Positions 2,553 through 58,474 of a stretch of 64,000 nucleotides of DNA are shown here, one piece after another; within the stretch, counting starts at the first letter, position 1, and each line of letters begins with the position of its first letter. The stretch is from Escherichia coli (GTDB lineage Bacteria > Pseudomonadota > Gammaproteobacteria > Enterobacterales > Enterobacteriaceae). The stretch lies in NCBI RefSeq assembly GCF_024700885.2, contig NZ_CP117016.1; one strand, written 5' to 3'. Below the pieces are notes generated by a model. It did no database searches, was not told the DNA's origin, and saw nothing but the letters and a program-made list of their open reading frames with translations. Both the position numbers and the translations under genes were made by a program.

Positions 2553-2660
2553 TTACTTCCGGTTACGCCACCAGCTGACAATCGCTGCGGTAATAATTCC
2601 CGCCAGGATCGGTGCTGCCAGGTCGTGCCAGAAAATCATGGCAAACTGCGCGAGCGTCAT
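2553..2660 (-). CDS. ldr: Ldr-family type I toxin peptide (35 aa), copy 2
   Basis: Minus-strand ORF ATG(2660)..TAA(2553) translating to MTLAQFAMIFWHDLAAPILAGIITAAIVSWWRNRK. Confidence 0.8.
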   Translation of the reverse strand: MTLAQFAMIFWHDLAAPILAGIITAAIVSWWRNRK

Positions 2661-2717
2661 ATAGCCGCCTTGTTGTAATGACAACATTTTGCGGCTATTC
2701 TTGAATTGTTGATGGTT

Positions 2718-2778
2718 CAAGATTAGCCCCCGTTCTGTTGTCAGGTTTTACCTCTCAACGTGCGGGGGTTTTCTCTTT
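2718..2778 (+). ncRNA. rdl: Putative Rdl antisense RNA (antitoxin), copy 2; ends approximate
   Basis: Same hairpin+T-run as copy 1, in the second repeat unit. Confidence 0.4.
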
Positions 2779-3065
2779 CCAGCAACCAATGCCACCAGGG
2801 ATAAAGCCCCCGCAACATTGCGCCTCACCGGATAACGCCGGCTTGGTGTGGATACTACGTCTCAATTCATCTTCACTTCATCCCTGAAATGTTTGCAATA
2901 AAGAGTACATTCCGGCTTTTCAACAGCTGTTGCAGTGGTTTCGTGCAGGTTCTGGTACAGGCTCGCAATTCTGATTAACAACCTGTTCAGGTAGTATGAA
3001 GAAATACAATAAGCAGGAATTTATATTATCTCCCCCGATTTCTGTCATCGGAGGAGATATAACTG

Positions 3066-4166
3066 TCAGGCAAATATCGTCATCAAATAGGCGGCAAACA
3101 GTGCGAGATGCGCTGCGCCATTGAGCACGTTAGTACGTCCGGTGGAGAAGGAGATATGGCACAGCACTAAAGAGGCCACCATCACCACCATTTCTGGCGC
3201 ACCAAGTGCAAACTGCAATTCGTTACCCGTCATAAAGGCAATTAGCGTGACGACAGGTACGGTAAGCGAAATGGTTGCTAACACTGAACCAAAGAACAGA
3301 TTCATCGCGCGCTGGACCTGGTTGTTCAACACTGCTTTTAACGCACCTAAACCTTCCGGCGACAGAATCAACAGAGCCACCAGGAAGCCAGTAAAGGCGA
3401 CAGGGGCATTCATGCTGTCGAGCAATGTCTCCAGTGGGCTGGCGTTCATTTTGGTCACCGCAATAACGGCAATCAGATGGACAATCAACCAGATAGCATG
3501 CCACAGGCTGCTATGGGCAGACGGTTTACCGTGGTGCGGGTCGTCATCATCACTGTCATCTTCGTGCTCGTAGACAAATAAACTTTGATGCGTTTTGGTC
3601 TGGATCAGCAAAAATACGCCATACATTGCCGCAGAAATTAATGCTACCAGTAACGCCTGACCGGTTGAAAAATTCGCCGCAGGCAGAGCCATTGGAAATA
3701 CCAGTACGATTATCGCCAGGGGGAACAGCGCAATTAAATACTGCTTGATACCAAACAGATTCATATATTGGGTGGCAAACTTACGACCGCCCAACAATAA
3801 TGAAAAGCCAACCAGCCCACCGGTAACAATCATAATGATTGAATAGAGCGTATCACGCATTAGCGTTGGTGCGGCGTCGCCGGTTGCCATTAAAGCTGAA
3901 ATCAAACTGACTTCAAGAATAACCACTGAAAGGCTAAGAATAAGCGAACCGTAAGGTTCTCCCAGGCGATGGGCTAATACGTCCGCATGACGGACAACAC
4001 TAAAGGCGCTACTTAAAATACCAATAAGAGCAAGAAGATTGATGGCAATGACCACTGGTAGTGTCTGGCTGCTTCCCCACAGGAACAGCACTACCAGCGC
4101 CAGAACCGGGAAAATAAGCGAAGTCTCCTTGTGGCGGGTTTTTACCGCCTCTTGAGCATTTGACAT
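3066..4166 (-). CDS. chaA: Ca2+/H+ (Na+/H+) antiporter ChaA
   Basis: Polytopic membrane ORF; start moved to the internal ATG at 4166 (MSNAQEAVKTRHK..., 366 aa) because the 29-codon upstream extension of the track ORF is low-complexity with no RBS. Confidence 0.85.
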   Translation of the reverse strand: MSNAQEAVKTRHKETSLIFPVLALVVLFLWGSSQTLPVVIAINLLALIGILSSAFSVVRHADVLAHRLGEPYGSLILSLSVVILEVSLISALMATGDAAPTLMRDTLYSIIMIVTGGLVGFSLLLGGRKFATQYMNLFGIKQYLIALFPLAIIVLVFPMALPAANFSTGQALLVALISAAMYGVFLLIQTKTHQSLFVYEHEDDSDDDDPHHGKPSAHSSLWHAIWLIVHLIAVIAVTKMNASPLETLLDSMNAPVAFTGFLVALLILSPEGLGALKAVLNNQVQRAMNLFFGSVLATISLTVPVVTLIAFMTGNELQFALGAPEMVVMVASLVLCHISFSTGRTNVLNGAAHLALFAAYLMTIFA

Positions 4167-4435
4167 TATGGTTATCCCTTTGCAGATGAATTTATCGAAA
4201 ATGTAAAAAATAGGTAGGAAAAATAACAGAAAGTGTCTGGATGTCGGTAACATTTTACGAATTTTTACCCCGCTGTCGATTTTTTACTCATCGGGCCATA
4301 AAAATAAGCAATGCGTTTAGACAATGTTTGTTTTAGCGTTTCTTAAGAAGAGTCTGACATGAAAATTCTTATGTTTTGGCAAGAGTGGATATTGTTGACC
4401 ACACTTAATGTTCAACTTTGTAAAAGGAGTCAACG

Positions 4436-4666
4436 ATGCCGTATAAAACGAAAAGCGATCTGCCGGAAAGCGTAAAGCACGTGCTACCGTCTCATGCTCA
4501 GGATATCTATAAAGAAGCGTTCAACAGCGCATGGGATCAATATAAAGATAAAGAAGATCGGCGTGATGACGCCAGTCGCGAAGAAACCGCGCATAAAGTG
4601 GCCTGGGCTGCTGTGAAGCATGAATATGCCAAAGGGGATGATGATAAATGGCATAAAAAATCGTAA
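4436..4666 (+). CDS. chaB: Cation transport regulator ChaB (76 aa)
   Basis: 76-aa ORF MPYKTKSDLPESVKHV... next to chaA; K-12 synteny. Confidence 0.8.
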   Translation: MPYKTKSDLPESVKHVLPSHAQDIYKEAFNSAWDQYKDKEDRRDDASREETAHKVAWAAVKHEYAKGDDDKWHKKS

Positions 4667-4823
4667 AACCGGTAGCTTAGTTAAAGCTATTCGTGCGGTG
4701 TTGCCTTGCAAGTGGTCCGTGGATTGCATATTGTCCCGTTAGTGGTTTCAAAATGAGCAGTAAAAATGTCCGGAAGACACCAAAAAGTTGTCGCAGGGAA
4801 GTATGCAGTGGCGGAGGTGTAAG

Positions 4824-5519
4824 GTGATAACGCGTGATTTCTTGATGAATGCCGATTGTAAAACGGCATTTGGTGCCATTGAAGAATCACTCTTATGGTC
4901 AGCAGAGCAACGGGCGGCTTCGCTGGCGGCGACGCTGGCTTGTCGACCTGATGAGGGACCGGTGTGGATCTTCGGTTATGGATCGTTGATGTGGAATCCG
5001 GCACTGGAGTTTACCGAGTCGTGCACCGGTACACTGGTTGGATGGCATCGTGCGTTTTGCCTGCGCCTGACCGCCGGGCGCGGGACTGCGCACCAGCCGG
5101 GACGGATGCTTGCACTGAAAGAGGGCGGACGCACCACAGGCGTCGCCTATCGACTGCCAGAAGAGGCGCTGGAGCAGGAACTAACCCTGTTGTGGAAGCG
5201 CGAGATGATTACCGGCTGTTATCTGCCAACCTGGTGTCAGCTTGATCTTGATGATGGACGCACAGTAAACGCCATTGTGTTTATTATGGACCCGCGACAT
5301 CCAGAATATGAATCTGACACTCGCGCTCAGGTCATAGCGCCGTTGATTGCGGCGGCGAGCGGTCCGCTGGGAACCAATGCACAATACTTGTTTTCACTGG
5401 AACAGGAGCTTATCAAACTGGGAATGCAGGACGATGGGCTGAATGATTTGCTGGTATCGGTAAAAAAACTGCTGGCGGAGAATTATCCGGATGGTGTGTT
5501 ACGGCCGGGATTCGCCTGA
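4824..5519 (+). CDS. chaC: ChaC, gamma-glutamylcyclotransferase-like protein
   Basis: ORF with YGSLMWNP motif; GTG start at 4824 preceded by GGAGGTG gives 231 aa; track ORF begins 36 nt earlier. Confidence 0.8.
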   Translation: MITRDFLMNADCKTAFGAIEESLLWSAEQRAASLAATLACRPDEGPVWIFGYGSLMWNPALEFTESCTGTLVGWHRAFCLRLTAGRGTAHQPGRMLALKEGGRTTGVAYRLPEEALEQELTLLWKREMITGCYLPTWCQLDLDDGRTVNAIVFIMDPRHPEYESDTRAQVIAPLIAAASGPLGTNAQYLFSLEQELIKLGMQDDGLNDLLVSVKKLLAENYPDGVLRPGFA

Positions 5520-6037: not shown

Positions 6038-6065
6038 TTACCAGTAATCGTTATTCTTTAGGGCT

Positions 6066-7496
6066 ATGGTTTTTCATTTTTTACCGGAAGTTACCGACGT
6101 TTTGAGCCGTTTCGTTCCTCGCATTATTCCGTTTTATTTACTCTTGCTGGCGGCAGGCGGTACCGCTAACGCACAATCTACCTTCGAGCAAAAAGCGGCA
6201 AATCCCTTTGATAATAACAATGATGGTCTGCCGGATTTAGGCATGGCACCTGAAAATCATGATGGGGAAAAACACTTTGCTGAAATTGTGAAAGATTTCG
6301 GCGAAACCAGTATGAATGATAACGGGCTGGATACTGGCGAGCAGGCAAAAGCTTTCGCATTGGGAAAAGTCCGCGACGCGCTTAGTCAACAGGTTAATCA
6401 GCACGTAGAGTCCTGGCTATCACCGTGGGGAAATGCCAGTGTTGACGTCAAAGTGGATAACGAAGGACATTTCACCGGCAGTCGTGGAAGCTGGTTTGTG
6501 CCGTTACAAGATAATGATCGTTATCTCACCTGGAGCCAGCTTGGTCTTACTCAGCAGGATGATGGGTTGGTGAGCAATGTGGGCGTTGGGCAACGCTGGG
6601 CGCGCGGCAACTGGCTGGTGGGTTATAACACTTTTTATGACAATTTGCTGGACGAAAATCTTCAGCGAGCGGGCTTTGGTGCCGAAGCGTGGGGCGAATA
6701 TTTGCGACTATCGGCAAACTTTTATCAGCCATTTGCTGCATGGCATGAACAGACAGCCACGCAGGAACAACGGATGGCGCGCGGGTACGACCTGACAGCC
6801 CGGATGCGCATGCCGTTCTATCAACACCTCAATACCAGTGTCAGCGTTGAACAGTATTTTGGTGATCGTGTCGATTTGTTTAACTCTGGTACGGGTTATC
6901 ACAATCCCGTCGCGTTGAGTCTGGGATTAAATTACACCCCTGTGCCCTTAGTCACTGTGACGGCCCAGCATAAACAGGGTGAAAGTGGCGAGAATCAAAA
7001 TAACCTCGGGCTGAATCTTAACTACCGCTTTGGTGTACCGCTCAAAAAACAACTTTCTGCGGGCGAGGTTGCCGAAAGTCAGTCGTTACGTGGTAGTCGC
7101 TATGACAATCCGCAGCGAAATAATCTACCGACTCTTGAGTACCGACAGCGAAAAACGTTAACGGTGTTTCTGGCGACACCGCCGTGGGATCTAAAACCTG
7201 GCGAAACAGTGCCGCTGAAATTACAAATCCGCAGTCGTTACGGTATTCGGCAACTGATTTGGCAGGGCGATACGCAGATATTAAGTTTGACGCCGGGCGC
7301 ACAAGCCAACAGCGCGGAGGGCTGGACGCTGATCATGCCTGACTGGCAAAACGGGGAAGGGGCAAGCAATCACTGGCGATTGTCTGTAGTGGTGGAAGAT
7401 AACCAGGGGCAGCGTGTCTCCTCCAATGAGATCACGCTAACGCTTGTCGAACCGTTCGACGCATTGTCAAACGACGAACTGCGCTGGGAACCGTAA
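6066..7496 (+). CDS. ychO: Putative invasin/intimin-like outer-membrane protein YchO (start uncertain)
   Basis: 476-aa ORF with signal-peptide-like N-terminus and beta-rich body; lies between ychN and narL as in K-12. True start may be downstream. Confidence 0.6.
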   Translation: MVFHFLPEVTDVLSRFVPRIIPFYLLLLAAGGTANAQSTFEQKAANPFDNNNDGLPDLGMAPENHDGEKHFAEIVKDFGETSMNDNGLDTGEQAKAFALGKVRDALSQQVNQHVESWLSPWGNASVDVKVDNEGHFTGSRGSWFVPLQDNDRYLTWSQLGLTQQDDGLVSNVGVGQRWARGNWLVGYNTFYDNLLDENLQRAGFGAEAWGEYLRLSANFYQPFAAWHEQTATQEQRMARGYDLTARMRMPFYQHLNTSVSVEQYFGDRVDLFNSGTGYHNPVALSLGLNYTPVPLVTVTAQHKQGESGENQNNLGLNLNYRFGVPLKKQLSAGEVAESQSLRGSRYDNPQRNNLPTLEYRQRKTLTVFLATPPWDLKPGETVPLKLQIRSRYGIRQLIWQGDTQILSLTPGAQANSAEGWTLIMPDWQNGEGASNHWRLSVVVEDNQGQRVSSNEITLTLVEPFDALSNDELRWEP

Positions 7497-8147
7497 TCAG
7501 AAAATGCGCTCCTGATGCACCCATACCGCTGCTTCCACGCGAGACTTGAGCTTCATTTTCTTCAGCATGTGCTTGACGTGCACTTTTACTGTGCTTTCGG
7601 TGATGTCCAGGCGGCGGGCAATCATCTTGTTCGGCAAACCCTGGGCAATCAGCTTGAGAATATCGCGCTCGCGTGGGGTTAACTGGTTAACATCGCGTTC
7701 AGTCGTGGCACGGTTAGCGCGCAAGCTGGCGGCCAGAACCGGCGTTAATGCTTCGCTTAATACCATTTCGCCAGCAGCTGCCTGATGCAATGCTTTCAGC
7801 AGATCTTCCGGCTCCATATCTTTTAACAGATAGCCATCCGCGCCGCGTTTCAGTGCGGTGACCACATCTTCTTCATGGTTAGAGACGCTGAATACCACAA
7901 TGCGCCCGGAGAGGGACTTTTCGCGCAGTTTATCCAGCGTTTCCAGACCATTCATGCCGGGCATATTGAGATCTAACAGGATCAGATCGGGATCAAGAGA
8001 TTCCGCCAGTTCAATACCCTGTTCGCCATTACTCGCTTCGCCAACCACGGTGATATCTGGTGCCATACTGATAAGCTGTTTTACGCCAGTTCGCAGCATC
8101 GGGTGATCGTCGATCAGCAGGATAGTAGCCGGTTCCTGATTACTCAT
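7497..8147 (-). CDS. narL: Nitrate/nitrite response regulator NarL
   Basis: Start set at ATG 8147 ([25 protein letters not shown]..., 216 aa): receiver domain plus LuxR-type HTH; 8-bp overlap with narX as expected. Confidence 0.9.
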
Positions 8148-9936
8148 GGGTATCTCCTTGGACGTCTGTGAAAGTTTTTTCGGGAATAAAGGTGACAACC
8201 ACTTCGGTGCCACCTGATTCACGACGGCGGACGCGGCAATCGCCTCGTAAACTTTGCGCACGGTCGCGCATTATTATCATGCCGTAGTGATTGCTGCGGA
8301 TGGCATTTTCAGGCACGCCGCAGCCGTTATCCTGGACGGTCAGTTTGACCTGATTATCGTTTTGCGCCACCGTCACCACGACCTCACTCGCTTGCGAATG
8401 TTTGAGGGCGTTACTTAATGCCTCACGGGCAATTTGCAACAAGTGGATTGCCTGATGCGAAGGCACCAGACGAGGCGGCAATTGATAATCCAGCTTCACC
8501 GGGAAGCCAAATTTGGCGCTGTACTCTTCGCAACTCGCCTCCAGCGCTGGACGTAATCCAGGCTCGGTGAGCTGCAAGCGGAATGTGGTGAGCAATTCAC
8601 GCAACTGCGCCCAGGATGCATTCAGTTCGTTACGGATCTGACTTAACAGTTCGCGGCTGCTTTCTGGCAGCGCATCGCCCTGCATCTGTAAACAACTCAC
8701 CTGCATCTTCATGCAAGAGAGAGATTGGGCAATAGAATCATGCAGTTCGCGCGCAATGGTGGCACGCTCTTCCATCACGATCAACTGTTGCTGACGTTCC
8801 TGATGGCGATCCAACGCCAGCGTGGCGGTGAGTTGTTCAACCAGGGTATCCACCAGTTGTTGTTGATCATGGCTAAGATGACGCCCCTGCGGCAGGGTCG
8901 CCAGCAAAATACCGTACTGCGTATGAGAGTCAGCCAGCCGCCACTTCAGGGTTGTGCCGCGATCGCCAACGGGTAATACGCCGCGCGGGCAGAGCTGGCA
9001 GCCTTTATCATCACAAGTCATATCTGGCTGGCAGGTAAACTCCTGATGATTCTCTTCATCATCAGTGTCATACACCCGCAGTTCAATATCACGTAGCAGG
9101 GTCAAATTCTGTAAGCCGTTGAGTACAGGTGACAGGCGTTCACACAGCGGGGCGCGGGAATGCAATCGGCGGTTGGCCTGCCATAAAAAAGAGAGGATCT
9201 GATTTTTATGCTCCAGCCCGGCGGTTTTCTCCTGAACCCGCTGCTCAAGTACGGCATAACTTTCGGCCAGTTCTGCAGACATATTGTTCAATGCAGTTCC
9301 AAGCATCGCCATTTCGTTGCGCCCGCTGATGTTTGCGCGTTGGGTAAAATCGCGATGGCTGACGGCACTCGCCATTGCCAGCAGTTGCCGCCACGGTTGT
9401 AGCAGTCGCGCCCGCAACCAGATAATAGTGAACACCAGTAAAAGTGCCATAAATACCGCCATTACCCGATGGACCAGTACCACTGTCTCAATGCGCATTT
9501 CCGTGGTGCGGTCAAAACCAGATACCAGCTGATCAAGCCCGGCAACAAACTGGCTGACATCCGCTGACACCGTTTCGCGGTTTTGTGCACGCATCAGCGC
9601 AGGGATCAGTTCATTACGCCAGTAATCTTGTAAACCCTGTAATTGCGCCAGTTGTCCGTCTCGTTCCGCTGCTCGAGTCAACTCGGCGCTAAATGCCGTT
9701 TGTTCCATTTCTTTAATTAAGGGCTTGTCTTTCTCGCTTAATGGCACTGCCGCCAACAGACGATAACTTTGCATGCGCAGCGATCCCGCTTTGTTGATCG
9801 CATGGGCGCTACCCTGAACGCCTTGCACCAGCCAGCCAGAAACTGCCATCCCTGCCAGTCCAATAGCAGTAGAAAGCAACACAATAAGCGCAACCTGATT
9901 AACCAGGGTGAGCGGAGAGAGACAACGTTTAAGCAT
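8140..9936 (-). CDS. narX: Nitrate/nitrite sensor histidine kinase NarX
   Basis: 598-aa ORF with N-terminal TM segments, HAMP and histidine-kinase domains (ELHDSIAQ H-box). Confidence 0.9.
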
Positions 9937-54976: not shown

Positions 54977-55747
54977 ATGGAAACCGTATCTGACGCACTG
55001 AAAGCACTGAAAAAAGCCTCTTCACATGTGGTGGCAGCTCGCCTTGGAATCAGTCGTGAAGAGGCTGTCAACGAGCTGTGGGAACTCAAAAGAAATGGCG
55101 TCGTTGATAAAACTGGTCACACCTGGTTTCTGGCTGGCGAAGGTGAATCCCGGGTAACCGAAGAGCGGCCAGTAAAATCTGAAGCACAGGATATGCTGAC
55201 CGGGGAGGTCGAACAAAAAGTTACCGCAGACATGATGATTGAGTTTATCGGTCAGGATGGGGCTAAAACGTGTGAGGAACTGGCGGGTAAGTTCGGTGTC
55301 AGTACTCGCAAGGTTGCTTCCACGCTGGCGGTGGTAACCGCAACGGGGCGGCTGGCACGCGTTAATCAGAACGGTAAATTTCGTTACTGCATGCCGGGCG
55401 ATAATTTACCAGCAGAGCCGAAAGCCGCGCTGGTAACGGAAAGTGATGGTAAGGCCTTTCCTCAGCCAGCAGGTGCTGCGTTACCAGTCCGGGAAGCCGC
55501 AACACAGGAAGAAATTAAAACAGAAACTGTGGCGGACATTGTGCAGCCGTTGCCATCGTTTACCGAAACGCAAGCAGATGAGCTGATTTTTCCGTCCCTT
55601 CGCAGGGCAAACCTGGCGCTGCGCAGGGCGAAAAGTGATGTTCAGAAGTGGGAGCGAGTCTGCGCCGCGCTGCGGGAGCTGAACAAGCACCGGGATATTG
55701 TTCGACAGATTACTGATTCTTCCCGCCGTGTTGTATCGGAAAAGTGA
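54977..55747 (+). CDS. Hypothetical phage protein (256 aa) with two winged-helix-like segments
   Basis: ORF with RBS-like GGAGG upstream; segments VAARLGISREEAVNELWELKRNGVV and CEELAGKFGVSTRKVASTLAVV resemble HTH units. Confidence 0.45.
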   Translation: METVSDALKALKKASSHVVAARLGISREEAVNELWELKRNGVVDKTGHTWFLAGEGESRVTEERPVKSEAQDMLTGEVEQKVTADMMIEFIGQDGAKTCEELAGKFGVSTRKVASTLAVVTATGRLARVNQNGKFRYCMPGDNLPAEPKAALVTESDGKAFPQPAGAALPVREAATQEEIKTETVADIVQPLPSFTETQADELIFPSLRRANLALRRAKSDVQKWERVCAALRELNKHRDIVRQITDSSRRVVSEK

Positions 55748-55762
55748 TTGCCGGAGGCGCTT

Positions 55763-56185
55763 ATGGCAAAAGTATTTACACAAGAAGAGCGGGAAAAAAT
55801 TAAAGGGCAGGTTGTTGAACTTGTACGTCTGAGCGGTCGCGAGACGTTGCGGCAACTGGAAGCCAAGACAGGTGCGACAAGATATCTGATGAGTGTTCTC
55901 GCCAGAGAGCTGGTTGCCAGTGGCGATGTATACAACTCTGTTTACGGGTTATTCCCGTCTGAACAGGCGCGTAAGGACTGGCAAAACGCCCGCAAAAAAC
56001 TCTCAAGGGCAAATCTGAAGAAACCATCTGTGGTTGATCCTGACCTTATCTGGACATTACCCGACGGAGAAATACGCCGCTACGACAGGCGTATGAACAT
56101 AATCTGTCGCGAGTGCCGGAAGAGTGAAGTTATGCAGCGCATATTGTCGTTTTATCAGGGTGATGTTCGGTATTTATTGAAGTGA
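55763..56185 (+). CDS. Hypothetical phage protein (140 aa)
   Basis: ATG at 55763 preceded by GGAGG at 5-nt spacing (MAKVFTQEEREKIKGQVVELV...). Confidence 0.45.
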   Translation: MAKVFTQEEREKIKGQVVELVRLSGRETLRQLEAKTGATRYLMSVLARELVASGDVYNSVYGLFPSEQARKDWQNARKKLSRANLKKPSVVDPDLIWTLPDGEIRRYDRRMNIICRECRKSEVMQRILSFYQGDVRYLLK

Positions 56186-56352
56186 CGAGATTAAAGTGCA
56201 TTAGTTCAGATGCAAATTGACATTTTGTGGCACAGGGTAGAGCTAGCGTGGTTGTCCGCTTTGTGCCAGAAGCGGACATAGCAGGTGCCAGATGCATTTG
56301 TTATTCTTCATTGAATTGAGCAGTATCCTTAACAGGAACTCTGAATACATAA

Positions 56353-56991
56353 ATGAAGATGAAAAACATGTCTGAAGTGTTGACCCAAGAAAAGCTTATT
56401 TTTGTTGCCCAGAGACTAAATGCCCTCGCGCAGTCAGGCCTGACCTATTCAAAAGACGTCTTTGACAAGGAACGCTATGAAGCCTTGCGTGAAATTGCCG
56501 CTGGACTGCTGAGTTCGCAGTTTGATATTAGCCGCAATGATTTGTTTCATGTATCGGAAACGGGTTACGCGACGCCCAAAACAGATGTGCGTGCGTTTAT
56601 CCTGCGTAATAATCGTATTCTGATGGTGAAAGAGGCTGCAGATGGATTATGGAGTCTTCCTGGCGGATGGGCAGATGTTGGAGATACACCTTCTGAAGCT
56701 GTGCGTCGAGAGGTCGAAGAAGAAACCGGATTAAAAGTCAGAGTGACTAAACTATTGGGAGTTTGGGATCGTAATCTTCACGGCCATCCGCCTTTACCCT
56801 GGCATGTTTACAAGCTGATTTTTCTCTGTGAAGAAGTAGGTGGCAGCCTGTCAATCAGCCATGAGTCACTCGATGCTGATTTTTTTGATGTCAACGACCT
56901 GCCTGAATTGTCGCTTTCAAGAATTGTGCCTGAGCAGATTGCTGTCAGCCTGAGAGTAGCGAAAGGTGATGAAAAAACATGGTTTGATTAA
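56353..56991 (+). CDS. NUDIX hydrolase with Nudix_N-type N-terminal domain (prophage cargo)
   Basis: Nudix box GGWADVGDTPSEAVRREVEEETGL (Gx5Ex7REUxEExGU); N-terminal ~60 aa resemble the Nudix N-terminal extension of ADP-ribose pyrophosphatase-type enzymes. Start may be 56359 or 56368. Confidence 0.8.
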   Translation: MKMKNMSEVLTQEKLIFVAQRLNALAQSGLTYSKDVFDKERYEALREIAAGLLSSQFDISRNDLFHVSETGYATPKTDVRAFILRNNRILMVKEAADGLWSLPGGWADVGDTPSEAVRREVEEETGLKVRVTKLLGVWDRNLHGHPPLPWHVYKLIFLCEEVGGSLSISHESLDADFFDVNDLPELSLSRIVPEQIAVSLRVAKGDEKTWFD

Positions 56992-57020
56992 CTTTCTTCT
57001 GCAACCATTAAGGAATGGCA

Positions 57021-57659
57021 ATGATATTCAACGCTAAGGGTTTTTTATTCGATATGGACGGTACGCTGGTTGATTCAACAGCCGTAGTGGAAAGCGTCTG
57101 GAGAGATTTTTGTGCAGAATACGGTCTTGATACTCAGGCTGTGATTGCTTACGCACACGGGCGGCAAACGATTGATACACTGACGCATTTTATTGGTGCA
57201 GGTGAGAAAACCAATAAAATCGCGGCCTCACTCGAAGAGGTTGAAATCAACACGACAGAAGGCGTTACTGAAGTAAAAGGGGCCGCTGCACTCTTATCAA
57301 AACTGCCACCGGATAGCTGGGCACTTGTTACTTCTGCAGGCAGAATGCTTGCCGAAAACAGGATGAAAGCGGCTAATCTCCCCTTACCCATAGTAATGGT
57401 GTGTGCAGAAGATGTAATGACGGGAAAACCAAGTCCCGAGGGTTACATCAAAGCAGCTTTGGCTTTGGGCCTTGAGCCTGGTGAATGCGTGGTATTTGAG
57501 GATGCATCTGCGGGTATAAAAGCAGGGCTGGCAAGTGGAGCTTCGGTAATAGCTGTTCAGCCTGACGCTCTGGGATCATCTGAAGCCCATGCCGTCAGCG
57601 AGCTGTCTGACATTATGGTCAAGATTTCCGGAGAACGTTTCAATATCATCTGTGGTTAA
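57021..57659 (+). CDS. HAD-superfamily phosphatase (beta-phosphoglucomutase-like subfamily)
   Basis: Motif I FDMDGTLVDS, motif II VTSAG, motif IV EDASAGIKAG; ATG at 57021 is 6 nt after AAGGA; 29 bp downstream of the Nudix gene. Confidence 0.8.
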   Translation: MIFNAKGFLFDMDGTLVDSTAVVESVWRDFCAEYGLDTQAVIAYAHGRQTIDTLTHFIGAGEKTNKIAASLEEVEINTTEGVTEVKGAAALLSKLPPDSWALVTSAGRMLAENRMKAANLPLPIVMVCAEDVMTGKPSPEGYIKAALALGLEPGECVVFEDASAGIKAGLASGASVIAVQPDALGSSEAHAVSELSDIMVKISGERFNIICG

Positions 57660-57922
57660 TCACGTTACACAATACGCATCAATGGACGCTGAGTAGTTCG
57701 CGAGTTTTAAACTTCCAACGTCCGCTTTTCGCTCAAAGCGGACTAGAAGGTTAGCTTGCGTCGGACTTGGCGTATTTAAAGAAGTGCTGGTGGTGACTGG
57801 TTGTTGTGTTCCATTTCTACAGAACAAAATCACAGAAACTATACCCAATAGTTGTATTGAATCACTGACGAGACAGCCTCATATTTATCAGGACTGGTGT
57901 ACGTCCAATACAGGAGGTTGTG

Positions 57923-58012
57923 GTGCTGGTTCTCAAATGTGCGCTGGCTATTGCTGCTGTAATGGCAATTTATTGCCTTGCTGTTGTTCTTATGGATCGC
58001 CTTTCTGATTGA
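57923..58012 (+). CDS. Candidate small hydrophobic peptide (29 aa) with strong Shine-Dalgarno
   Basis: AGGAGG at 57912-57917, then GTG at 57923 (or 57920); translation MLVLKCALAIAAVMAIYCLAVVLMDRLSD has a single predicted TM helix and charged tail; not in the ORF track (<60 aa). Confidence 0.3.
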   Translation: MLVLKCALAIAAVMAIYCLAVVLMDRLSD

Positions 58013-58223
58013 TTTCATATTGGCGAGGTGACGGGAGTTAAGTAGAATGGCTGCGGGTGCTTGAGGCTATCTGTCTCAGGCATGAACACCAAAGGCAGAT
58101 AGAGAAAAGCCCCAGTTAACATTACGCGTCCTGCAAGACGCTTAACATTAATCTGAGGCCATATCTATGCTCTACACACGTAGGTTAGCCTCTTACGTGC
58201 CGAAAGGCAAGGAGAAGCAGGCT

Positions 58224-58379
58224 ATGAAGCAGCAAAAGGCGATGCTAATCGCCCTGATCGTCATCTGTTTAACCGTCATGGTGACGGCACTGGTAACGAG
58301 GAAAGACCTCTGCGAGGTACGAATCCGAACCGGCCAGACGGAGGTCGCTGTCTTCACAGCTTACGAACCTGAGGAGTAA
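58224..58379 (+). CDS. hok: Hok/Gef-family type I toxin (51 aa), near-identical to HokD/RelF
   Basis: MKQQKAMLIALIVICLTVMVTALVTRKDLCEVRIRTGQTEVAVFTAYEPEE; the in-frame upstream extension in the track (from 58167) is not the toxin start. Confidence 0.85.
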   Translation: MKQQKAMLIALIVICLTVMVTALVTRKDLCEVRIRTGQTEVAVFTAYEPEE

Positions 58380-58447
58380 GAGACCCGGCGGGGGAGAAAT
58401 CCCTCGCCACCGCTGATGTGTCAGGCATCCTCAACGCACCCGCACTT

Positions 58448-58474
58448 AACCCGCTTCGGCGGGTTTTGTTTTTT
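58448..58474 (+). terminator. Rho-independent terminator after hok
   Basis: aacccgcttcggcgggtt hairpin followed by TTGTTTTTT. Confidence 0.65.

Follow-up and report, generated by a model that had tools for sequence, protein, structure and literature searches.

The Nudix-HAD gene pair and its enzyme families

We analyzed a pair of hydrolase genes in a 64,000-nucleotide stretch of Escherichia coli contig NZ_CP117016.1 (assembly GCF_024700885.2), which is called the window below. The pair is carried by a lambdoid prophage integrated beside ompW, where the two genes are arranged head to tail, with the replication module on one side and hokD on the other. They form a mobile accessory cassette and are not a phage core function. 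The first gene encodes a Nudix hydrolase (positions 56353-56991, plus strand), and its open reading frame comprises 212 amino acids. Since the homologues possess 207 amino acids, the start is probably at position 56368, which gives a protein of 207 residues. The second gene encodes a HAD-IA phosphatase (57015-57659, plus strand; open reading frame of 214 amino acids). Its probable start is position 57021 (212 amino acids), which is the start used in RefSeq, and a ribosome-binding sequence, AAGGA (57010-57014), is located six bases ahead of this ATG. The gap between the genes is 29 bp when counted from position 57021 and 23 bp from position 57015. Both reading frames in the initial annotation were real, on the plus strand and with Nudix and HAD domains by Pfam, and its 29-bp gap holds from the start at 57021. 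In the RefSeq annotation of an identical record (E. coli MLI114, NZ_CP117013), the pair is flanked by a DUF977 gene, which is the end of the replication module, and by hokD, DUF968, RusA and antiterminator genes. These neighbors confirmed the placement of the pair in a slot between the replication module and the hok/antiterminator region.

In the Nudix protein, Pfam detected a Nudix_N domain at residues 14-61 (E = 1.6e-17) and a NUDIX domain at residues 77-184 (E = 1.1e-18). The PDB matches were CDP-Chase from Bacillus cereus (3q1p; E = 9e-50, 45% identity), the UDP-X diphosphatase SP_1669 from Streptococcus pneumoniae (4hfq; E = 2e-37, 38% identity) and a Streptococcus suis protein labelled ADP-ribose pyrophosphatase (3o8s). 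The window protein aligned end to end with all three, including the N-terminal helical domain. The UDP-X diphosphatase/CDP-Chase subfamily forms an asymmetric homodimer with hydrolase activity for nucleoside diphosphate-linked compounds (NDP-X), and is marked by a YXTP hinge, an LPXLS motif, a modified Nudix box, GXarXsm[E/D]UX2[S/T]X2EX3KEUXEEXGU, and Glu162 (PMC3655063). Its substrates are UDP-MurNAc(-L-Ala) and UDP-glucose, or CDP-choline in the case of CDP-Chase, and a 3'-5' RNA exonuclease activity accompanies them (PMC3655063). The window protein shares the two-domain build and possesses YATP, LPELS and a glutamate in 'SHESLD' that is aligned to Glu162 of 4hfq. Its Nudix box is GWADVGDTPSEAVRREVEEETGL. 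As compared with the superfamily pattern, GX5EX7REUXEEXGU, Asp stands in the position of the first Glu, and REVEEE is an intact core. As compared with the subfamily pattern, Arg replaces Lys (REVEEE versus KEUXEE). By these motifs, the protein is a predicted member of the UDP-X diphosphatase/CDP-Chase subfamily. Unlike the characterized members, it is encoded in a Gram-negative mobile element and not in a cell-wall or sporulation gene neighborhood.

The Nudix protein had been described as an ADP-ribose-pyrophosphatase type in the initial annotation. This was rejected, since it is a database name only: 'ADP-ribose pyrophosphatase YjhB' on homologues is a source label, the curated ADP-ribose pyrophosphatase models of NCBIfam gave no match, and the characterized relatives cleave CDP-choline, UDP-sugars or UDP-MurNAc. 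The sole NCBIfam match to an enzyme of ADP compounds was NudE, which scored 19 bits (cut-off, 169), and the NadM-type bifunctional models scored about 28 bits (cut-offs, above 350). In PHROGs, the protein belongs to phrog_25541 (489 bits), a family of unknown function.

For the second protein, Pfam detected HAD_2 (E = 6e-22) and Hydrolase (E = 5e-16), and the HAD-IA model TIGR01509 of NCBIfam was matched at 59.8 (cut-off, 29.4). The HAD motifs I-IV are present as FDMDGTLVDS, VTSAG, GKPSPE and FEDASAG, as in subfamily IA. The protein shares the HAD-IA fold and the four catalytic motifs with E. coli YfbT/HxpA and yeast Gpp1. The nearest HAD model was PRK11587 (NF008610), which represents YfbT/HxpA-type sugar phosphatases. 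However, the score of 189.3 bits was below the equivalog cut-off of 282, and the protein is a YfbT relative of a paralogous lineage, not an equivalog. The best PDB match was yeast glycerol-3-phosphatase (2qlt; E = 2e-22), and the best matches overall were sugar-, hexitol- and glycerol-phosphate phosphatases. For both proteins of the pair, the fold is settled by these matches to PDB structures. In PHROGs, the protein is assigned to phrog_8468. No relative above 52% identity was detected in 100,044 species-representative genomes by a scan with exact 8-residue words, which may miss relatives of 60-90% identity; the nearest relatives in these genomes were actinobacterial (48-52%).

Cassette boundaries and genomic contexts

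The ends of the cassette were mapped by BLAST of positions 55700-58400 against fetched loci, which carry L numbers in this text. Homology starts at position 56254 and stops at 57743/57744 whatever the flanks, which are unrelated to each other. The whole cassette (56254-57744, plus strand; 1,491 bp) consists of a left site, leader, Nudix gene, HAD gene, trailer and right site. Its identity was 99.3-99.5% in phage P24C9 (L002 8001-9491), in a copy adjacent to paoD (L004), in an integrase island (L007) and in a copy at the P2 A/Q position (L230 4234-5722). All copies are at least 99% identical and have the same ends, and they were found in five unrelated contexts. The first is the lambdoid DUF977/hokD slot, which has at least two backbone lineages (86-100% identical). 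The second is the G/FI ('Z/fun') locus of the P2-like phages P24C9, 10W and 11W, and the third is the gpA/gpQ (old/tin) locus of another P2-like phage (L230). The fourth is the right end of a lambdoid prophage beside paoD. The fifth is an integrase/ankyrin island, where the HAD gene has a 235-bp deletion.

The cassette is carried by 21 of 5,426 complete E. coli genomes (0.4%). These results agree with the earlier view of the pair as prophage cargo. The pair is conserved as a unit across prophages, in lambdoid and P2-like copies with the same ends. The alternative in the initial annotation, a widespread chromosomal housekeeping duo captured only here, does not hold, since the pair is rare and shared by unrelated prophages. 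The absence of HAD relatives above 52% identity from the word-based scan also argues against such a duo. Furthermore, the presence of the pair varies between conserved neighbors, as in a moron: the DUF977-hokD backbone has other cargo in L017 and L018, and the G-FI interval has fun in P2.

Two further observations concern single copies. The record of phage 11W (L025, NC_070902, 1501-2840) contains many N bases across the cassette and is annotated only as 'similar to hypothetical protein'. A decayed copy was rejected for this phage, because the low coverage is a sequence-quality artefact of the N-rich sequence. In L230, the cassette is followed by three co-oriented open reading frames (6056-8277; 377, 142 and 215 amino acids), which gave no PADLOC match.

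The left (L) and right (R) sites are 24-bp palindromes. The L site (56254-56277) is GTCCGCTTT-GTGCCA-GAAGCGGAC, and the R site (57720-57743) is GTCCGCTTT-TCGCTC-AAAGCGGAC. They share 9-bp arms and differ in the spacer. The exact palindrome pattern was matched twice in the window, with zero matches expected. Stable hairpins are predicted for both sites, with a stem of 9-11 bp in L and a z value of -4.1 in R. Across the contexts of the cassette, the inner 15 nucleotides of the sites are invariant with the cargo, whereas the outer 9 nucleotides change with the backbone. When different cargos on one backbone were compared (window, L017 and L018), the pattern was reversed: the outer part was constant and the inner part variable. 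Since the outer arms track the backbone, and the inner arms and spacer track the cargo, the point of exchange lies between the spacer and the outer arm. The process looks like a natural exchange of cassettes through two heterospecific sites.

Around fun(Z) of P2, the L and R sites are present as well (L026 536-559), and they are found in L017 at 2569-2592 and 3577-3600. The repeats of the P2 Z-region were presumably described by Nilsson et al. in 2004. The P2 inverted repeats are already annotated in GenBank records of 2003-04, and the sites are in this respect described. In the Z-region record of P2-EC46 (AJ512680), the window sites match the ends of the features named left and right inverted repeat (L237 92-115 and 3166-3189), the left repeat ending with GTCCGCTnTGTGCCAnnAGCGGAC and the right repeat beginning with nTnCGCTnnTCGCTCAAAGCnGAC. 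No L or R site was found around old/tin of P2. In L230, the sites came with the cassette.

In an IMG/VR scan, 72 hairpin-forming L sites were found in 120 stretches, and an R site was present within 9 kb in 26 cases. The cargos between L and R were 0.5-5.4 kb in length, tandem L-R-L-R-L arrays were included, and the conservation of the sites in these loci was limited to each 24 bp. Joined-flank searches of 50,697 phage records did not detect a truly empty site. Among the 5,426 E. coli genomes, the search for an empty site gave one deletion remnant only (L238 446-716), in which an L site and half an R site enclose about 230 bp. Every slot thus seems to be occupied, a pattern more consistent with the replacement of one cargo by another than with insertion and excision.

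Tandem arrays (L-cargo-R, about 18 nucleotides, L-cargo-R and so on) were observed in a viral contig (L046 2245-5310) and also in chromosome-like Enterobacterales contigs (L009 4229-8008 and L019 4875-6760). The layout resembles an integron-like cassette array, and no recombinase was seen nearby.

Other identities were considered for the boundary hairpins. Intrinsic terminators were rejected, since a T-tract is absent on both strands. A known RNA element was also rejected; Rfam gave only sok and a weak isrK-like match, both of which are described at the end of this text. The L spacer GTGCCA(A/G), for example GTGCCAA at L017 2578-2584, equals what we take to be the 7-bp core of the sfx sites of the R64 shufflon, on which the tyrosine recombinase Rci acts. 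This likeness may be chance, as the arms are unrelated, and we note it as a lead only.

Linkage, expression and possible roles

From the two enzyme families, we infer a substrate class, a coupling of two steps and a benefit to the phage or host. The Nudix enzyme would cleave the pyrophosphate of a sugar or alcohol linked to a nucleoside diphosphate, probably of a pyrimidine, so that NDP-X would yield a nucleoside monophosphate and X-phosphate. The YfbT/Gpp-like HAD-IA enzyme would then convert X-phosphate to X and phosphate. This removal of phosphate would make the destruction of the activated precursor irreversible, and the pair would lower the pool of an activated precursor of the envelope or of DNA modification. 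The cassette may act in this way as cargo for lysogenic conversion or for competition between phages, as do other genes in these slots. We propose this role, which is predicted from the sequences, as a tentative reading with a real chance of being correct. A further reading is a previously unrecognized two-enzyme module of inter-phage conflict, exchanged as a cassette at the paired palindromes between lambdoid and P2-like phages, in which the irreversible hydrolysis of a pyrimidine-nucleotide-linked metabolite would starve competitors or erase a nucleotide-derived immune signal to the benefit of its own phage. This reading is unlikely in our estimation. For starvation, the candidate targets are UDP-glucose, the modified dCTP/dCDP of T-even DNA modification, or an envelope precursor required for adsorption.

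Several observations weigh against the proposed role in precursor depletion. The sequence does not assign a substrate to the Nudix enzyme, and at 38-45% identity its specificity may differ from that of its characterized relatives. Each gene is more common alone than in the pair: the Nudix gene stands alone in Cedecea, Pseudescherichia and L009, and the HAD gene in L020-L023. Pairing is therefore not obligatory. Of the 21 copies in E. coli, three have one damaged gene. An identical 235-bp deletion in the HAD gene is present in B4103-1 and MB06101 (the junction at L007 4640-4641 corresponds to window positions 57439-57674), and IS3 replaces the Nudix gene in S1-CAM-02-A (L008 2245-3500). This suggests weak selection in E. 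coli. Since the slots also hold arsenic-resistance, SDR, MFS and GNAT genes, the location does not imply a conflict role. In PADLOC-DB v2, the Nudix protein matched only PDC-S07 (36.6 bits), through the generic Nudix fold, and the HAD protein matched nothing. In addition, a sigma-70 consensus scan of positions 56186-56352 found no promoter-like site from which the pair would be expressed in the lysogen; a simple scan of this type can miss weak or alternative promoters.

The linkage of the two genes was examined in related loci. They are adjacent in three lineages, namely the E. coli cassette, L019, and L011/L012. The pair in L011/L012 lies beside integrases (identity, 80% for Nudix and 73% for HAD). 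In L019, the identities are 89% and 83%, and the block is located between L and R sites. The synonymous divergence (dS) from L019 is 0.55 for the Nudix gene and 0.51 for the HAD gene, and the ratios of nonsynonymous to synonymous divergence (dN/dS) are 0.105 and 0.168, respectively. Thus, both genes have co-diverged under purifying selection. The initial annotation had proposed a two-step route from Nudix to phosphatase. This route is plausible in view of the adjacency and co-divergence of the genes, but the ADP-ribose type of substrate attached to it is unsupported. Outside the pair, Nudix homologues that stand alone on chromosomes of Cedecea, Pseudescherichia and other Enterobacterales have about 70-84% identity, and the HAD relatives that stand alone have 69% or less.

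The L019 locus contains a third gene directly upstream of the Nudix gene (4982-5317), which encodes a 111-amino acid protein of the GGACT type (gamma-glutamyl-cyclotransferase-like). Since the leader of the E. coli cassette aligns with the GGACT-Nudix junction of L019, the E. coli cassette may be a shortened form.

The linkage data bear on a different explanation, in which the palindrome system shuffles any block and the two genes have merely been carried along, as a housecleaning Nudix enzyme and a HAD enzyme that is a promiscuous sugar phosphatase, with no joint pathway and no role for the phage. Their common source would be an array of cassettes on a chromosome. Chromosome-like loci with the same L and R sites, L009 with Nudix alone and L019 with GGACT, Nudix and HAD, are consistent with this. 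So are the ars, LysR-hydrolase-MFS, SDR and GNAT genes in other cassettes, the low frequency in E. coli together with near-identical copies that indicate recent spread, the damage in three copies, and a G+C fraction close to that of the host (0.465 in the cassette and 0.492 in the window). However, the two genes have stayed adjacent in three lineages, even where dS is saturated, with purifying selection on both and equal dS, and five different phage or island slots with limited packaging space have retained the cassette. We consider passive carriage somewhat unlikely.

The proposed depletion of a precursor can also be compared with the contents of the slots. More than 1,000-1,800 E. coli genomes have the DUF977/hokD backbone. 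In sister cassettes, PADLOC detected PD-T7-1 (521 bits), NsnA (190 bits), a TIR-TM protein, an HNH effector-like protein and a trypsin-like protease. Other sister cargos, recognized by sequence, were an ars operon, a LysR-hydrolase-MFS set, an SDR gene with a regulator, and XRE with GNAT. Thus, the slot is defence-rich but not defence-only. Vassallo et al. described the P2 fun locus as a second hotspot enriched in defence genes (PMC9519451).

Two other cargos of the lambdoid slot gave no PADLOC match. L017 contains a 269-amino acid Cys-rich protein on the opposite strand (2647-3456), which is also present in the IMG/VR loci L048 and L098. L018 contains a pair of proteins with 320 and 333 amino acids (2692-4671).

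The location in the P2 fun and old/tin hotspots and in the lambdoid slot, beside sister cargos such as PD-T7-1, NsnA and TIR, raises the possibility of anti-phage defence by nucleotide depletion. The Nudix enzyme would deplete (deoxy)nucleoside triphosphates, modified pyrimidine nucleotides or UDP-glucose, and the HAD enzyme, as a nucleotidase or sugar phosphatase, would make the loss irreversible. Depletion of deoxynucleoside triphosphates is an established principle of defence, as in the dCTP deaminase and dGTPase systems. The similarity to PDC-S07, a PADLOC candidate that is itself a Nudix protein, and weak NCBIfam matches to MutT and to pyrimidine deoxynucleoside triphosphatase point in the same direction. 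In contrast, the pair has no sensor or regulatory domain, and a constitutive enzyme of this kind would be costly to the host. The match of the HAD protein to the pyrimidine 5'-nucleotidase model was marginal (E = 1e-3), the genes point in the direction of lytic transcription, the sigma-70 scan gave no promoter, and validated defence families were not matched. Identity with a known defence system was rejected, as PADLOC gave no meaningful match. We regard nucleotide-depletion defence as distinctly unlikely.

The initial annotation had also proposed an independently regulated promoter upstream of the pair, based on a TTGACA hexamer at 56219-56224 and on paired repeats. The hexamer is located at 56217-56222. 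It belongs to the prophage backbone 3' of the DUF977 gene (56186-56253, plus strand), outside the cassette, and the consensus scan found no sigma-70-like site. This promoter was therefore rejected. The segment 56186-56253 together with the L site is common to more than 1,000 E. coli genomes with other cargo. Both repeats exist, gatgcaaattg at 56209-56219 and gatgcatttg at 56291-56300, but they straddle the left boundary at 56254. A designed pair was rejected, because the first repeat belongs to the backbone segment that is found in these genomes whatever the cargo; the P2-like copies of the cassette lack this repeat. The leader from the L site to the Nudix start (56278-56367, plus strand), in which the sigma-70 scan recognized no promoter, contains a weak terminator-like stem (56278-56304) and partly aligns with the leader of the solo Nudix locus L009 as well as with the L019 junction. 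The genes of the cassette run in the same direction as the early-right operon in the window and as the late operon in P24C9. Judging from this orientation, read-through expression during lytic growth is possible.

Lytic expression, to which the co-orientation and the undetected promoter point, would suit counter-defence, in which the pair would destroy a nucleotide-derived immune signal or its precursor, such as ADP-ribose derivatives or cyclic ADP-ribose isomers. Phage Nudix domains have been proposed to act against ADP-ribose-derived signals (PMC9503650). The phage Nudix proteins of the T4 NudE and NadM clades are found mainly in large myoviruses, and they occur in about 0.25% of small phages and in less than 1% of non-myoviruses (PMC9503650). 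The window Nudix protein is likewise phage-encoded, but it falls outside both clades. The preference of the characterized relatives for CDP- and UDP-linked substrates, and the lack of a match to ADP-ribose pyrophosphatase models, stand against this explanation, and many Enterobacterales possess homologues as ordinary genes of the chromosome. Furthermore, cyclic mono-, di- and oligonucleotide signals offer no pyrophosphate bond for cleavage by a Nudix enzyme. Counter-defence is thus improbable.

Comparison with known systems and neighboring elements

The lysogenic-conversion cargo of the P2 Z-region, including fun(Z) (AJ512680), is the closest parallel in location. The cassette occupies the same G/FI locus in P24C9, 10W and 11W, with the same inverted-repeat ends. 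It differs in that its cargo is two metabolic-type hydrolases and not fun or other exclusion genes, and in that it is also found in the lambdoid replication/hok slot, at the P2 A/Q position, at a lambdoid right end and in an integrase island. A defence system of the P4 hotspot that consists of a HAD-like hydrolase and a transmembrane protein shows that HAD enzymes can serve in anti-phage systems (Rousset et al. 2022). That system and the window pair are alike in having a HAD-superfamily hydrolase as hotspot cargo of a temperate element. In the window, however, the partner is a Nudix enzyme, a membrane partner is absent and PADLOC gave no match. Accessions of the Nudix/HAD pair were not listed in the supplements of Rousset et al., and no report of a Nudix-HAD phage module was found in a literature search.

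The Nudix-HAD pair is a new type of cargo in known hotspots. It is a reasonable, unproven candidate for experiments and not yet a discovery. If a conflict role is true, the pair would add a purely metabolic module, Nudix plus phosphatase without a sensor, to the mechanisms of phage-borne defence and counter-defence, and pools of nucleotide-sugars or nucleotide-alcohols would be a battleground. Even without such a role, the cassette is a clean natural marker that moved recently among lambdoid prophages, both variable loci of P2-like phages and a genomic island. Since the same 1.5 kb with the same ends moved recently between contexts, the mechanism of exchange at the palindromes should be approachable by experiment. 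The cassette is also a warning that location in a hotspot alone does not mark immune genes.

The hokD locus lies directly 3' of the cassette. It contains a full-length match to the sok antitoxin RNA (58055-58229; 114.7 bits), which is followed at 58388-58469 by an isrK-like match that is weak (27 bits) and below the threshold.

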